Below, piece by piece: positions 2,658 through 47,674 of a stretch of DNA of 49,982 nt. A program made the translations under genes and the position numbers. Origin of the DNA: a virus (Duplodnaviria; Heunggongvirae; Uroviricota; Caudoviricetes); the IMG/VR virus record IMGVR_UViG_2588253749_000002; one strand, written 5' to 3'. Position 1 is the first letter of the stretch, and the number at the start of each line of letters is the position of its first letter. The notes under the pieces were generated by a model. The model was not told the origin of the DNA and searched no databases. It saw nothing but the letters and a program-made list of their open reading frames with translations.

Positions 2658-4665
<2,008 letters not shown>

Positions 4666-6194: not shown

Positions 6195-6292
6195 CTTTCA
6201 TTAATCCCTGAATTGTTGGTTAATACGCTTGAGGGTGAATGCGAATAATAAAAAAGGAGCCTGTAGCTCCCTGATGATTTTGCTTTTCATGT

Positions 6293-6776: not shown

Positions 6777-6927
6777 ACCGCCTCCCGTTTATTATTTATC
6801 TTCTCAGCCAGCCGCTGTGCTTTCAGTGGATTTCTGATAACAGAAAGGCCGGGAAATACCCAGCCTCGCTTTGTAACGGAGTAGACGAAAGTGATCGCGC
6901 CTACCCGGATATTATCGTGAGGATGCG

Positions 6928-8395: not shown

Positions 8396-8692
8396 TTATA
8401 CCTCTGAATCAATATCAACCTGGTGGTGAGCAATGGTTTCAACCATGTACTGGATGTGTTCTGCCATGCGCTCCTGAAACTCAACATCGTCATCAAACGC
8501 ACGGGTAATGGCTTTTTTGCTGGCCCCGTGGCGTTGCAAATGATCGATGCATAGCGATTCAAACAGGTGCTGGGGCAGGCCTTTTTCCATGTCGTCTGCC
8601 AGTTCTGCCTCTTTCTCTTCACGGGCGATCTGCTGGTAGTGACGCGCCCAGCTCTGAGCCTCAAGACGATCCTGAATGTAATAAGCGTTCAT
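8396..8692 (-). CDS. gam: Host-nuclease (RecBCD) inhibitor Gam
   Basis: 98-aa ORF matching lambda Gam short form ([21 protein letters not shown]...). Confidence 0.9.
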
Positions 8693-8768
8693 GGCTGACC
8701 TCCTGAAAATGGCTGTGAAAATATCGCCCGCGAAATGCCAGGCTGATTAGGAAAACAGGAAAGGGGGG

Positions 8769-9059
8769 TTAGTGATTCAGGCCGTTACCGCGTCCGTCGA
8801 GAAAAACTTCCACGAGCAAATCACTGGTATAAGTGCGCTCGATGCCGCGATGCAGATAAAGCCGTCCGCGTAAATTAGCTGATGCAGTCCAGGTACCATC
8901 TTTGTGTTTGACCAGCATTCCTGGCATGACCGCGCCGCGATTAACGGTCTGTGTTCCGTAATGTTGATGAACCATAAAAACTCCTGCCCGTAAGCTGGGC
9001 TGCTGAACATATAGAGACTTCTGCGCATATTCAGGCGGTGGATGGCCGCCGGTTGTCAT
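8769..9059 (-). CDS. Hypothetical protein in the kil/N position (first ORF downstream of PL)
   Basis: 96 aa from ATG with GAGG RBS; the ORF track extends it to a TTG at 9179, adding an Arg-rich N-terminus (see findings). Confidence 0.5.
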   Translation of the reverse strand: MTTGGHPPPEYAQKSLYVQQPSLRAGVFMVHQHYGTQTVNRGAVMPGMLVKHKDGTWTASANLRGRLYLHRGIERTYTSDLLVEVFLDGRGNGLNH

Positions 9060-9252
9060 AACTAAGCCGCCTCGTTGAAGCGACTGAGGTATGAAATGTT
9101 GAGTTAATTTCAGCTGGTCACACCGACGTTCACGCGTCCGTTTCACCCCTCGCACTCCCCGAAGCCTGCTGAAATTCAAACTGCGGATCTAAGCGGTCAT
9201 CGCAACGGTGAATCAGGTAGTTGCCGTATCGTTGTGTTGTTGCGATGAACTT

Positions 9253-9331
9253 ATTTAAAACTATAGTTGTTTTATCGTCAACAACAAAAGTTGTTTTATT
9301 GGTTGTTTTAGATATAACTGGTTGTATTTAG
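9253..9331 (-). promoter_or_regulatory. PL promoter with OL operator repeats
   Basis: Minus-strand TTGACG-17bp-TTAAAT embedded in palindrome GTTGTTGACGATAAAACAAC, plus AACAACTTTTGTTGTT and further GGTTGT half-sites; coordinates approximate. Confidence 0.5.
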
Positions 9332-9420
9332 GATGGATTTATTTTGTGACTTGAATCGCATAGCGATAACTGAAGCGAGGTTATGGTGGTTTTTTTAACG
9401 GTGTGTGTGATGAGGGGAGG

Positions 9421-9449
9421 GCAAAAGAAAACCCGGCACGGTGACCGGG
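9421..9449 (-). terminator. Rho-independent terminator downstream of cI
   Basis: CCCGG-CACGGTGA-CCGGG hairpin followed on the minus strand by TTTTCTTTT; coordinates approximate. Confidence 0.5.
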
Positions 9450-9570
9450 ATTCTTACGCCGTTAGGTAAAGATATTATTGCGGTGGCTTAATATTACTAC
9501 CTAGAGCAAAGATAGGAATTAGTTCTTTACTGAATGAGCACAATGCCCAGTTGATAATTTTTAATTGGTA

Positions 9571-10260
9571 CTACCCATGCTTCCTATATGTCTGCGGCAT
9601 GCTCCCAATAACCTTACCGAAGATGAACACCCGGTTCATCTCGTCTTTCTCGATCGGGTCCCACGGTGAGTAGCTTTTGTTATCAGAGATGACCAGCAGC
9701 TTATCCTTCATCATTTGCAGGCGCTTTACATGGGCTGTGTCGTCGTACAGAAACGCATAGATACCATCACCGTCGAAAGATTTAACTGTGATATCAACGA
9801 ACAGCAGATCACCTGGTTCGATCGTTCCTGACATGCTGTCACCACGCACGTTAATGATGCGGATATTTTCCGCCTTCCTACCATCGAACATGTGACGAGC
9901 ATCGTCAAACGAGTACTCAACCGAGCGTAGAACTTCTACAAACTCACGGTTGATGACTCCCGGCCCAGCACTGACTTCTATATCAAGAACGTCAATCTTG
10001 AAGTATTTGGAATGGCTGACAGTTGATTGTATTGGTTGCACTGTACTGTCTGACATATTTCCAACGCCAGAAGATAACCATTCTGCGCGCACACCCAAAG
10101 CGTTCGCGATCTCCACGATTTTAGTTGTTTGATTAGCTTTCCCTGTTTCGATTTTCTGAATAGCAGCCTGGCTAACCCCGACCAAATCCCCAAGCGCCTT
10201 TTGTGTAAGGCCTCGCGCTAATCTGGCTTCTTTAAGTCTTTCTGAGAGTGTTGTTTTCAT
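9571..10260 (-). CDS. cI: CI-type repressor (HTH plus S24 LexA-like peptidase domain)
   Basis: Track ORF 9571-10326; start taken at internal ATG (MKTTLSERLKEARLARGLTQKAL...) giving 229 aa; divergent from cro. Confidence 0.85.
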   Translation of the reverse strand: MKTTLSERLKEARLARGLTQKALGDLVGVSQAAIQKIETGKANQTTKIVEIANALGVRAEWLSSGVGNMSDSTVQPIQSTVSHSKYFKIDVLDIEVSAGPGVINREFVEVLRSVEYSFDDARHMFDGRKAENIRIINVRGDSMSGTIEPGDLLFVDITVKSFDGDGIYAFLYDDTAHVKRLQMMKDKLLVISDNKSYSPWDPIEKDEMNRVFIFGKVIGSMPQTYRKHG

Positions 10261-10301
10261 AGTCCAAATGTACAACCAAGGTTTTATTCCATCAAACGAA
10301 A

Positions 10302-10337
10302 ATGGTTGTTGACTAAAAACAACCATAGTTTTAATCT
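10302..10337 (+). promoter_or_regulatory. PR promoter with OR operator
   Basis: 25-bp palindrome ATGGTTGTT-GACTAAA-AACAACCAT containing -35 TTGACT, 17-bp spacer, -10 TAATCT; GGAGG RBS before cro. Confidence 0.6.
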
Positions 10338-10364
10338 TGATTCAAATTAACCACGGAGGTTGTT

Positions 10365-10595
10365 ATGAACCCAGCTATCAAAACAGCGATCAATATCGTT
10401 GGTTCACAAAAGAAACTGGGCGCTGCTTGCGAAGTTTCACAGCAGGCCGTCTATAAGTGGCTTCACAACAAAGCAAAGGTATCCCCTGAACATGTCGGCA
10501 GCATTGTTACGGCTACTGGTGGAGTAGTGAAGGCATACCAGATTCGCCCGGATCTTCCGAAGTTGTTTCCACACACCGAAAAGAACGCAGCTTAA
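10365..10595 (+). CDS. cro: Cro-like transcriptional regulator
   Basis: 76-aa HTH protein divergent from cI. Confidence 0.8.
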   Translation: MNPAIKTAINIVGSQKKLGAACEVSQQAVYKWLHNKAKVSPEHVGSIVTATGGVVKAYQIRPDLPKLFPHTEKNAA

Positions 10596-10607
10596 ATTTC
10601 CATTTCA

Positions 10608-10620
10608 CGCTCTTTAACAA
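10608..10620 (+). promoter_or_regulatory. boxA-like antitermination element (nutR position)
   Basis: CGCTCTTTAACAA directly downstream of cro, matching the boxA consensus; no boxB hairpin seen after it. Confidence 0.45.
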
Positions 10621-10664
10621 TAAGCAATCAACTTAACAGTCAATTCAAACTAAAGGAGTCAATT

Positions 10665-11204
10665 ATGCAACCACTTCCATACCAACAGACTAGCGGATTT
10701 AGCCCGACTGCGGTGATAAATCGTTCTCAAACAAAACAGGTGCCAGGCCACGAAAAAATCCGTGATGCCGTCCGCGCCTGGTCGGCTGTAGATAATCAGG
10801 ATGTCGTTGCCACACTCATTGTGAATGAGTATCGGGAGCAGGGCGGCGGCACCATCGATTTCCCTGATGATGTCAGCCGTGCACGCCAGAAGCTGTTCCG
10901 CTTCCTCGATAACAAATTCGATTCTGAAAAATACCGAAATAACGTGCGTGAACTGACCCCGGCAATTCTGGCGGTACTACCGCTGGAATATCGCGGTTAC
11001 CTGGTTGAGCAGGATAGCTTCATGGCCAGGTTGGCTGAAATGGAAAAGGAACTCAGTGAGGCAAAACAGGCTGTCATTCTCAACGCACCACGCCACCAGA
11101 AACTGAAGGAAATTAGTGAAGGTATTGTATCGATGTTTCGTGTGGACCCAGATCTGGCTGGTCCATTGATGGCGATGGTTACTACCATGCTGGGGGCGAT
11201 ATGA
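10665..11204 (+). CDS. CII-position regulator, YdaT-like family (tentative)
   Basis: 179-aa ORF in the cII position with RBS AAGGAG; recalled resemblance to prophage YdaT-family proteins. Confidence 0.5.
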   Translation: MQPLPYQQTSGFSPTAVINRSQTKQVPGHEKIRDAVRAWSAVDNQDVVATLIVNEYREQGGGTIDFPDDVSRARQKLFRFLDNKFDSEKYRNNVRELTPAILAVLPLEYRGYLVEQDSFMARLAEMEKELSEAKQAVILNAPRHQKLKEISEGIVSMFRVDPDLAGPLMAMVTTMLGAI

Positions 11205-12919: not shown

Positions 12920-13230
12920 CGGGCAAAGAGGCAATTATTCATTACCTGGGGACTCATAAGAAATTCTGTGCGCAGGACGTTGCCGCGGTAACAGGCGCAA
13001 CGGTAACCAGCATAAATCAGGCTGCGGCTAAAATGGCACGGGCAGGTCTTCTGGCTATCGAAGGTAAGGTCTGGCGAACGGTGTATTACCGGTTTGCTAC
13101 CAGAGAAAAACGGGAAGGAAAGGTGAGCACGAATCTGATTTTTAAGGAGTGTCGCCAGAGTGCCGCGATGAAACGGGTATTGAGGGTATTGGATTTGCCC
13201 CTATATTTCCAGACATCTGTTATCACTTAA
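12916..13230 (+). CDS. ren: Ren-like protein, 3' end altered by IS2 insertion
   Basis: First 90 or so aa match lambda Ren; reading frame enters the IS2 end at 13190. Confidence 0.8.
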
Positions 13231-14106
13231 CCCATTACAAGCCCGCTGCCGCAGATATTCCCGTGGCGAGCGATAACCCAGCGCACTATGCGGATGCCAT
13301 TCGTTATAATGCTCGAACGCCTCTGCAAGGTTCTTTGCTGCCGTTAACCCGTCTGGTTTGGGCATGATACTGATGTAGTCACGCTTTATCGTTTTCACGA
13401 AGCTCTCTGCTATTCCGTTACTCTCCGGACTCCGCACCGCCGTGTTCTTCGGTTCAAGTCCCAACATCCGGGCGAACTGGCGTGTTTCATTAGCCCGGTA
13501 GCATGAACCATTATCCGTCAGCCACTCCACTGGAGACGACGGAAGATCGTTGCCGAAGCGGCGTTCCACCGCTCCCAGCATGACGTCCTGTACTGTTTCA
13601 CTGTTGAAGCCGCCGGTAGTCACCGCCCAGTGCAGTGCCTCACGATCACAGCAGTCCAGCGCGAACGTGACACGCAGTCTCTCTCCGTTATCACAGCAGA
13701 ACTCGAACCCGTCAGAGCACCATCGCTGATTGCTTTCTTTCACGGCCACTCTGCCTGTATGTGCCCGTTTCGATGGCGGTACAGCAGGTTTTCGCTCAAG
13801 CAACAGCGCATTCTGGCGCATGATCCGGTAAACACGTTTGGCATTGATCGCAGGCATACCATCAAGTTCTGCCTGTCTGCGAAGCAGCGCCCATACCCGA
13901 CGATAACCATACGTGGGCAGCTCTCCGATAACATGGTGTATACGGAGAAGCACATCCGTATCATCAGTGTGACGACTGCGGCGGCCATCCATCCAGTCAT
14001 CGGTTCGTCTGAGAATGACGTGCAACTGCGCACGCGACACCCGGAGACAACGGCTGACTAAGCTTACTCCCCATCCCCGGGCAATAAGGGCGCGTGCGCT
14101 ATCCAC
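13201..14106 (-). CDS. insD: IS2 transposase OrfB (InsD)
   Basis: 301-aa DDE transposase ORF overlapping insC. Confidence 0.9.
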
Positions 14107-14429
14107 TTTTTTGCCCGTCCATATTCAACGGCTTCTTTGAGGAGTTCATTTTCCATCGTTTTCTTGCCGAGCAGGCGCTGGAGTTCTTTAATCTGCTTCA
14201 TGGCGGCAGCAAGTTCAGAGGCAGGAACAACCTGTTCTCCGGCGGCGACAGCAGTAAGACTTCCTTCCTGGTATTGCTTACGCCAGAGAAATAACTGGCT
14301 GGCTGCTACACCATGTTGCCGGGCAACGAGGGAGACCGTCATCCCCGGTTCAAAGCTCTGCTGAACAATTGCGATCTTTTCCTGTGTGGTACGCCGTCTG
14401 CGTTTCTCCGGCCCTAAGACATCAATCAT
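14064..14429 (-). CDS. insC: IS2 transposase OrfA (InsC)
   Basis: 121 aa from [14 protein letters not shown]... Confidence 0.9.
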
Positions 14430-14621
14430 CTGTTCTCCAATGACTAGTCTAAAAACTAGTATTAAGACTATCACTTATTTAAGTGATACTGGTTGTCTGG
14501 AGATTCAGGGGGCCAGTCTAGGTATATAAAAGAACATCAATGGGTACACAATGATGAAACAGGTGAGTTGAGTTCAAACTGTAGTACAATTCTCTCCAGT
14601 TTGAACAGGAAAGAATATTCT

Positions 14622-17917: not shown

Positions 17918-18111
17918 TTTTCAGCACATTTGATTTCCCATAATCAACCAGCCATAATCATGCCATTGGAGCTTGAACAACTCCGGTGACTTCTGCGCTA
18001 AACGGGGACGTTTATGCGCACATACAATCCAAACTATCTTCTCCCTTCACAGATGCAGAAATGCACCTGCGATATCTTGCATCCAGCGTTTGATCTCTGC
18101 GGAGGTGAAGC

Positions 18112-24830: not shown

Positions 24831-28511
<3,681 letters not shown>

Positions 28512-47090: not shown

Positions 47091-47674
47091 TGGCATTCAG
47101 AATGAGTGAACAACCACGGACCATAAAAATTTATAATCTGCTGGCCGGAACTAATGAATTTATTGGTGAAGGTGACGCATATATTCCGCCTCATACAGGT
47201 CTGCCAGCAAACAGTACCGATATTGCACCGCCAGATATTCCGGCTGGCTTTGTGGCTGTTTTCAACAGTGATGAGGCATCGTGGCATCTCGTTGAAGACC
47301 ATCGGGGTAAAACCGTCTATGACGTGGCTTCCGGCGACGCGTTATTTATTTCTGAACTCGGCTCATTACCGGAAAATGTCACCTGGTTATCCCCGGAAGG
47401 GGAGTTTCAGAAGTGGAACGGCACAACCTGGGTGAAAGATGCAGAAGCAGAAAAACTGTTCCGGATCCGGGAGGCGGAAGAAACAAAAAATAGCCTGATG
47501 CAGGTAGCCAGTGAGCATATTGCGCCACTTCAGGATGCTGCAGATCTGGAAATCGCAACGGAGGGAGAAACCTCGTTGCTGGAAGCCTGGAAAAAGTATC
47601 GGGTGTTGCTGAACCGTGTTGATACATCAACTGCACCTGATATTGAGTGGCCTGCTGTCCCTGTTATGGAGTAA
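47090..47674 (+). CDS. tfa: Tail fibre assembly chaperone Tfa
   Basis: 194-aa ORF immediately after stf; lambda Tfa-like. Confidence 0.85.

Follow-up and report, generated by a model that had tools for sequence, protein, structure and literature searches.

A consensus boxA without boxB between cro and cII of a DLP12-like Escherichia coli prophage: a probable relic of nutR

The nutR sites of lambdoid phages consist of a boxA and a boxB and are read by N together with NusA, NusB, NusE and NusG. The boxA of phage lambda is CGCTCTTA. The site described here, CGCTCTTTAACAA, is of the consensus form, and it resembles the nutR sites of lambda, P22 and phi21-type phages in its type of boxA and in its place just after cro on the PR transcript. 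Compared with a lambda-type nut site, however, only the boxA is present in the window (the whole 49,982-bp stretch of DNA that was analysed), whereas the boxB hairpin, a cognate N gene and a nutL partner are absent, so that the site lacks three of the four defining nut features. The BoxA-only elements of rrn leaders, the suhB 5′ UTR and Salmonella CRISPR leaders share with it a lone GYTCTTTAANA and the absence of N and boxB, and the suhB element also resembles it in having a consensus boxA within 50 nt of a start codon. BoxA-only elements recruit SuhB or NusB and alter Rho termination or translation; the suhB boxA mediates translational repression and then Rho termination, and the boxA of the CRISPR leaders acts against Rho (PMC5725501, PMC7665894). 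Both the consensus match and the sense-strand location that mark this class are found in the window. The window site differs from these elements in that it is known from sequence alone, in that sister phages do without it and in that a decayed nutR origin is visible. A further likeness is to the N-less lambdoid phages HK022 and HK639, whose early region also has no N; HK639 moreover has cro and cII genes of the same types as the window. However, both phages have put RNA, which the window lacks, and neither has a boxA after cro.

The window holds a lambdoid, DLP12-like prophage of E. coli with a YdaS-type cro and a YdaT-type cII. On the minus strand stand exo, bet, gam and kil, then a PL-like promoter, a terminator and cI; the order on the plus strand is YdaS-type cro, a 69-nt spacer, the YdaT-type cII-like gene, O and P. 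An IS element splits the region after ren, and emrE and the remaining DLP12 genes lie beyond it. The features around the boxA are the following.

8769–8975, minus strand: kil, of the FtsZ inhibitor family, the first recognisable gene of the PL operon (phrog_294, 2e-37)
9571–10260, minus strand: cI repressor with HTH and S24 peptidase domains (Pfam Peptidase_S24 and HTH_3; RefSeq annotation of the same gene)
10300–10340, plus strand: candidate PR promoter and operator, read by eye (TTGACT, 17 nt, TAATCT; operator repeats AACAACC/GGTTGTT)
10365–10595, plus strand: cro, YdaS-type HTH repressor of 76 aa (Pfam YdaS_toxin 4.1e-17 and P22_Cro 8e-5; phrog_35)
10596–10664, plus strand: cro-cII spacer of 69 nt, which closes the immunity module on the right; poor in G (6 G, 15 C) and without structure
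10608–10620, plus strand: boxA CGCTCTTTAACAA in the nutR position (sequence match; lines up with the nutR boxA found behind related cro genes)
10653–10658, plus strand: Shine-Dalgarno of cII, AAGGAG, read directly (GGAG at 10655–10658, ending 6 nt before the ATG)
10665–11204, plus strand: cII-like activator of the YdaT family, 179 aa (Pfam YdaT_toxin 8.5e-30; phrog_163, CII-like, 3.9e-67)

YdaT is a functional CII equivalent (PMC9986795). The PR-like architecture is repeated at PL, as far as can be read from the letters; PR was not called by the promoter scan and its assignment is putative. Escherichia phage PhiR34_1, deposited as a complete phage genome, is 99.5% identical to the window over 2.6 kb around boxA, and its record annotates the same gene as Cro. 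The cro-cII junction itself was found in about 1506 of 5426 complete E. coli genomes, that is, in more than a quarter. The PhiR34_1 GenBank record also lists a 77-aa ‘hypothetical protein’ (L001, 4508–4741) in another frame over the kil DNA, which looks like a mis-called frame. Within 13201–14474 on the minus strand, just after ren, lie two overlapping transposase-like ORFs of 136 and 301 aa, which we take from their sequence to be IS2/IS3-like. An istA/istB pair, IS21-like by eye, is found in the distal left arm (2724–4525, minus strand), and an Rfam IS009 RNA match of 225 bits at 47433–47631 on the plus strand. Mobile elements interrupt the prophage, which is probably defective.

The cro stop codon TAA occupies 10593–10595 and the ATG of the next gene begins at 10665. 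By direct reading boxA lies 12–13 nt past the cro stop and 44 nt ahead of the cII start, which bears out the original prediction of a near-consensus boxA 13 nt past that stop. The core GCTCTTTAACAA (10609–10620) occurs once as an exact match in the 49,982 bp; the remaining matches, all elsewhere in the window, have two mismatches each. The functional consensus used was the gamma-proteobacterial GYTCTTTAANA (Baniulyte et al. 2017, PMC5725501). Its sole exact match in the window is at 10609–10619; by chance 0.11 would be expected, and one match turned up in 11 of 100 whole-window shuffles. The boxA is on the sense strand of cro and cII, between both genes and downstream of the PR-like promoter and operators, and the region is presumably transcribed from PR.

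The 69-nt spacer forms no hairpin (fold of −3.6 kcal/mol, z = −0.76), and a 161-nt context around it shows less structure than shuffled versions do (z = +1.18). Past boxA, the most stable local hairpin within 55 nt reaches only −0.8 kcal/mol, and none is read upstream, within the 12 nt that separate the cro stop from boxA. In rrn antitermination leaders boxA stands between an upstream boxB and a downstream boxC; the comparison with them covered the boxA core. These values uphold the earlier observation that no boxB-like stem-loop precedes the next gene. The spacer is almost invariant across 16 loci and 100% identical in six deposited phages; since it is essentially invariant, population variation shows neither drift nor constraint on boxA. 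In E. coli genomes of another immunity type the match to the window begins 2 nt ahead of the cII ATG, which assigns the entire spacer to the immunity module.

An N gene was sought by tblastn with the N proteins of lambda, P22 and phi80 and with HK022 Nun, and no match was found in the window at E ≤ 1. The same lambda, P22 and Nun queries do detect N genes in loci L020–L039 of the comparison described below. Among the ORFs of at least 20 aa listed for 8690–9575, from PL to gam, no Pfam or PHROG match to N was obtained and Kil alone was recognised; no N lies between kil and PL. No N is annotated in the near-identical PhiR34_1 or in the RefSeq prophage, and the homology searches, the ORF listing and these annotations all agree with the original prediction that a canonical N is missing. 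A nutL is also lacking: the early region contains no second boxA with up to two mismatches, and none was seen when the PL leader was read directly. The corresponding feature is

9096–9295, minus strand: PL promoter (about 9262–9295) and conserved 5′ leader of about 150 nt, by sequence reading, with no nutL, boxA or put

An arginine-rich stretch, KRTRERRCDQ, can be read in this leader in frame with kil, and it resembles the Arg-rich motif of lambda N. As a hidden N this frame was rejected. It contains a TAG in PhiR68_2 and frameshifting indels of 1 nt or 5 nt in four loci, its ratio of synonymous to nonsynonymous changes (8:13) is no better than that of other frames, and it has no Pfam or PHROG match.

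For put, a covariance model (R1) was built from five sites, namely putL and putR of HK022, putL of HK639 and two new putL copies. It scores 57–104 bits on its own training sites (HK022, HK639, CobraSix and L057). In the window's early region it found nothing, and its one partial match in the window is at 26942–26970 (10.5 bits, E 1.3); blastn-short with put also gave no match in the window. Rfam negatives are uninformative on put, since HK022 and HK639 themselves have no Rfam match and Rfam thus has no put family. Two unannotated HK639-type putL sites came to light, one in Logan contig ERR1015440 (L057, 1350–1429, minus strand, 104 bits) and one in Enterobacter phage CobraSix (L005, 2726–2802, minus strand, 102 bits).

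The comparison with relatives was based on 25 aligned Cro homologs and on 45 genomic loci fetched from other Enterobacterales, to which five loci that encode the closest Cro proteins (80–84% identical; L057–L061) were added. A boxA with at most two mismatches lies 7–24 nt after the cro stop in 21 fetched loci, and 19 of these 21 have, within the following 55 nt, a hairpin with a folding energy of −5.3 to −11.3 kcal/mol, compared with −0.8 kcal/mol for the window's best. In the Serratia locus L034, for example, CGCTCTTAAACATCTC is followed by GCTCTGAAGAAGAGC. Many of the boxA loci also have a nutL, in the form of a boxA with a comparable hairpin that lies left of cI and on the other strand, and in many a lambda- or P22-like N gene was identified leftward by tblastn with the N queries. 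Because relatives carry a boxA and a hairpin, and often a nutL and an N, the position after this YdaS-type cro family is the nutR position. The Rac prophage was discarded as a comparator; its ydaS-ydaT spacer of 22 nt is too short for a nut site.

The nutR-like sites of L057–L061 are the closest to the window. Their boxA and flanking spacer can be aligned with the window's, whereas at their hairpin about 21 nt are missing from the window. In these five loci boxA is followed after 15–20 nt by GGCUGA-NNNN-UCAGCC, with the loop GAAA, GGAA or AUUA, and the hairpins have −10.5 to −11.3 kcal/mol. In the MAFFT alignment that includes them (A2), the gap of about 21 nt in the window lies over the 3′ arm of boxB, and window AGTCAATT stands opposite GGCTGAATT. 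Two E. coli variants that share the junction also miss about 21 nt in the MAFFT alignment. Window AGTCAATTCA lines up with GGCTGAATTATCAGCC, which implies that the 3′ arm of boxB is gone from the window, and what may be left of the hairpin is

10638–10647, plus strand: likely remainder of the ancestral boxB hairpin (5′ arm and loop), where AGTCAATTCA aligns to GGCTGAATTA..., as suggested by one alignment

The alignment with nutR regions of related prophages, by which the original prediction was to be judged, thus went against it, with a conserved boxB-like hairpin in the relatives and a deletion of about 21 nt across it in the window. One of the five loci, L057, has a YdaT-type cII and PL operators that match those of the window. 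Behind its cro both boxA and hairpin are intact, yet the place of nutL is taken by putL, and tblastn found no N homolog in the fetched stretch. L057 appears to be the same combination as the window at an earlier stage. In L058, L060 and L061 the nutR-like site is paired with a phi80-type PL leader.

The phages 4A7, PhiR68_2 and PhiR30_1 have a cII 95–97% identical to that of the window and the same O, P and ren, joined to a different cro/immunity module, and their 30-nt cro-cII spacer contains no boxA. The viability of these sister phages was taken from their deposit as complete phage genomes of isolates. No boxA is found in the PR position of phi80, HK639, HK225 and CobraSix either, which are built like the 4A7 type. 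On the plus strand of the intact relative L065, a consensus scan from cro to Q revealed no convincing intrinsic terminator, and the first good one lies just past Q; as Rho-dependent sites are beyond prediction here, the absence of PR terminators covers intrinsic ones only.

A small GC hairpin over the cro stop (GCCGCYTAA..GGCGGC) was observed in phi80, HK639, HK225, CobraSix and the 4A7-type phages. It occurs in L003 (3960–3985), L004, L005, L008 and L009–L011, about 15–25 nt ahead of the cII start, and the window's immunity type is without it.

Since sister phages do without a boxA and no convincing intrinsic terminator precedes Q, the window site is best described as an orphan half-nut site. 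With boxB deleted and no N protein encoded, its boxA is probably a leftover rather than a new mechanism. The reading we consider likely, with appreciable doubt, is that the boxA at 10608–10620 is the orphan half of a nutR, carried along with the immunity module and at most modulatory. The 13-mer would be a boxA by descent from a lambda-type nutR that once stood behind the YdaS-type cro family, and the boxB hairpin would have been destroyed in this lineage by a deletion of about 21 nt and by point changes. The immunity module, which runs from cI over PR and cro to the end of the spacer at the cII ATG, would now reside in a DLP12-like backbone without N, nutL or put. When PR fires, boxA would be transcribed. 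Because the consensus match is 12 of 12, binding of NusB-S10 by the boxA RNA most likely persists, and this RNA could still seed a Nus complex without N. The phage would nonetheless not depend on boxA, as the same downstream operon appears to run without it in the sister phages. The orphan half-nut site would then be a by-product of mosaic immunity-module exchange between N-dependent and N-independent lambdoid phages.

Some observations speak against a relic. BoxA-only elements do work without N on rrn operons, suhB and CRISPR arrays (PMC5725501, PMC7665894). The perfect 12/12 boxA stands beside a boxB remnant and flanks that look decayed, and selection could be acting on boxA, although the dating of boxA against boxB decay, for which the ancestral boxB sequence would be needed, is weak. 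In addition, the G-poor, unstructured spacer would seem to resemble a Rho loading site. A working boxA-only role, with protection from Rho and damping of cII translation taken together, is possible but on balance doubtful.

In the first of these two forms, which is rather unlikely, NusB/S10 with NusA, NusG and SuhB would assemble on boxA without N or boxB and protect the early operon of about 10 kb transcribed from PR from Rho, in the manner of rrn operons and CRISPR arrays. The functional consensus is matched perfectly, on the sense strand and early in the operon, in a phage without N, nutL and put; the spacer is G-poor and unstructured, and boxA has stayed intact despite the loss of boxB. 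There is also a precedent in the CRISPR transcripts, which are untranslated and which boxA alone shields from Rho (PMC7665894). However, genes are densely packed in the PR operon, and RNA under translation is no substrate for Rho (PMC7665894). The sister phages with the same cII, O, P and ren manage without a boxA, as do phi80, HK639, HK225 and CobraSix, and descent from nutR already accounts for its presence. The PL operon, moreover, has a good intrinsic terminator yet no boxA. The original prediction of a boxA-only or otherwise non-lambda antitermination mechanism on the PR operon therefore found no support in the comparison, given the hairpin in the relatives, the boxA-free sisters and the lack of a convincing terminator before Q.

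In the second form, which we regard as improbable, a Nus complex would tether the boxA RNA to RNA polymerase and hinder ribosomes at the cII Shine-Dalgarno, 34 nt from boxA, and so tune the choice between lysis and lysogeny. Lambda N represses comparably at nutL. With less than 50 nt between boxA and the cII start, the site is within the distance set by Baniulyte et al., whose genome screen listed boxA matches ahead of prophage cII and cI genes and who found that suhB repression survives when as much as 100 nt is inserted between boxA and Shine-Dalgarno (PMC5725501). However, in the sister phages this cII allele functions with a spacer that has no boxA, and since the boxA of the relatives belongs to a full nutR, its closeness to cII reflects inheritance and not design.

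The N proteins vary widely, and Gp17 of mEp021 is encoded to the right of the repressor. The boxA could accordingly be part of a nut site for an N-like factor that has escaped recognition, either independent of a hairpin or encoded elsewhere. Loci L041 and L042, with paired boxA sites, a common CACGACAGGC motif and weak hairpins, are compatible with such a factor, and so is the readability of KRTRERRCDQ in frame with kil. However, that frame is broken by the stop and indels described above, with an 8:13 ratio and no family match, the early region has no second boxA, and the window's spacer is deleted relative to intact sites. Such a factor is accordingly very improbable.

Equally remote is a role at the level of DNA, in which the 13-mer would be part of a YdaT operator or of a PRE-like promoter region. 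In CP-933P the YdaT footprint spans about 95 bp over the ydaS-ydaT junction, around TTGATT-N6-AATCAA (PMC9986795). The window has TTAACAATAAGCAATCAA at 10614–10631, with a perfect right half-site. Its three mismatches, however, are all in the left half-site, and the window has 34 matches of this kind where 27 are expected; the same cII allele is found with an unrelated spacer in the sister phages, and nutR homology explains the 13-mer. The sole zero-mismatch match in the window to the CP-933P operator consensus is a separate palindrome, TTGATTTCCCATAATCAA, at 17930–17947 on the plus strand in the gap upstream of ybcN. Lastly, a chance match without history, for which the single matches in 11 of 100 shuffles to the degenerate consensus might be cited, is effectively refuted by the alignment, as the exact 12-mer and its preceding C, with alignable flanks, are placed where 21 related cro loci carry boxA.

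In the PL operon, these phages would have to pass terminators without N and put. At 6254–6272 (minus strand), an intergenic gap of this operon contains a good intrinsic terminator, AGGGAGCTACAGGCTCCTT and then TTTTATTATT, in a phage without N, nutL or put, and a second candidate at 6845–6867 lies inside an ORF. The PL leader at 9096–9255 (minus strand) begins with a 5′ stem, CATCGCAAC...GTTGCGATG, which is kept while its loop varies; the roughly 100 nt beyond this hairpin form a core with almost no variation. The leader is conserved over at least four PL/immunity types, in 32 distinct variants. RNAalifold on 25 variants gave 38 pairs with no compensatory change, and the leader has no Rfam match and does not look coding. 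By eye, the sequence around the annotated KilS sRNA upstream of kilR in Rac, which was considered as a comparator, is unrelated to it. The leader adjoins a 37-nt junction, and in L057 putL directly precedes that junction. Other loci carry a phi80-type boxA leader several hundred nt before the junction, and in many other IMG/VR loci the junction is preceded by an intrinsic terminator that ends the upstream gene, so that position alone is no proof of a putL-like function. The PL leader is a candidate for a new sort of cis-acting RNA. A wider proposal is that in this DLP12-like family (near Bievrevirus), with neither N nor put, the boxA of PR serves against Rho or in the tuning of cII and the PL leader is a new cis-acting antiterminator that carries transcription past 6254–6272; this is speculative and, as a whole, quite unlikely.

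The phi80 ‘nutL’ leader of about 170 nt has the boxA TGCTTTTTAACAA, a CACG-loop-CGTG and then a long GC-rich segment. Leaders of this type are 97–99% conserved in several prophages that have no homolog of the ORF annotated as N in phi80, and their sites, all on the minus strand, are L058 1134–1305, L060 1267–1438, L061 1699–1870, L014 2475–2662 and L008 972–1129. Either these prophages have their real N elsewhere or the leader acts alone. An ORF starting MPVKQRER lies downstream of the leader in some of them.

Taken together with its relatives, the boxA after cro appears to be a further BoxA element, whose descent from nutR can still be seen, rather than a new mechanism, and the binding of NusB/S10 is probably retained. 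If it is a relic, it would be a clear example of how the mosaic exchange of immunity modules leaves regulatory-RNA half-sites in phages that do not use them, and it would also be a warning against reading mechanism from a motif alone. Since the junction is present in more than a quarter of complete E. coli genomes, a consensus NusB/S10 site would be transcribed at each induction, and this wide occurrence makes even a weak effect of the boxA on Rho termination or cII translation cheap to test.
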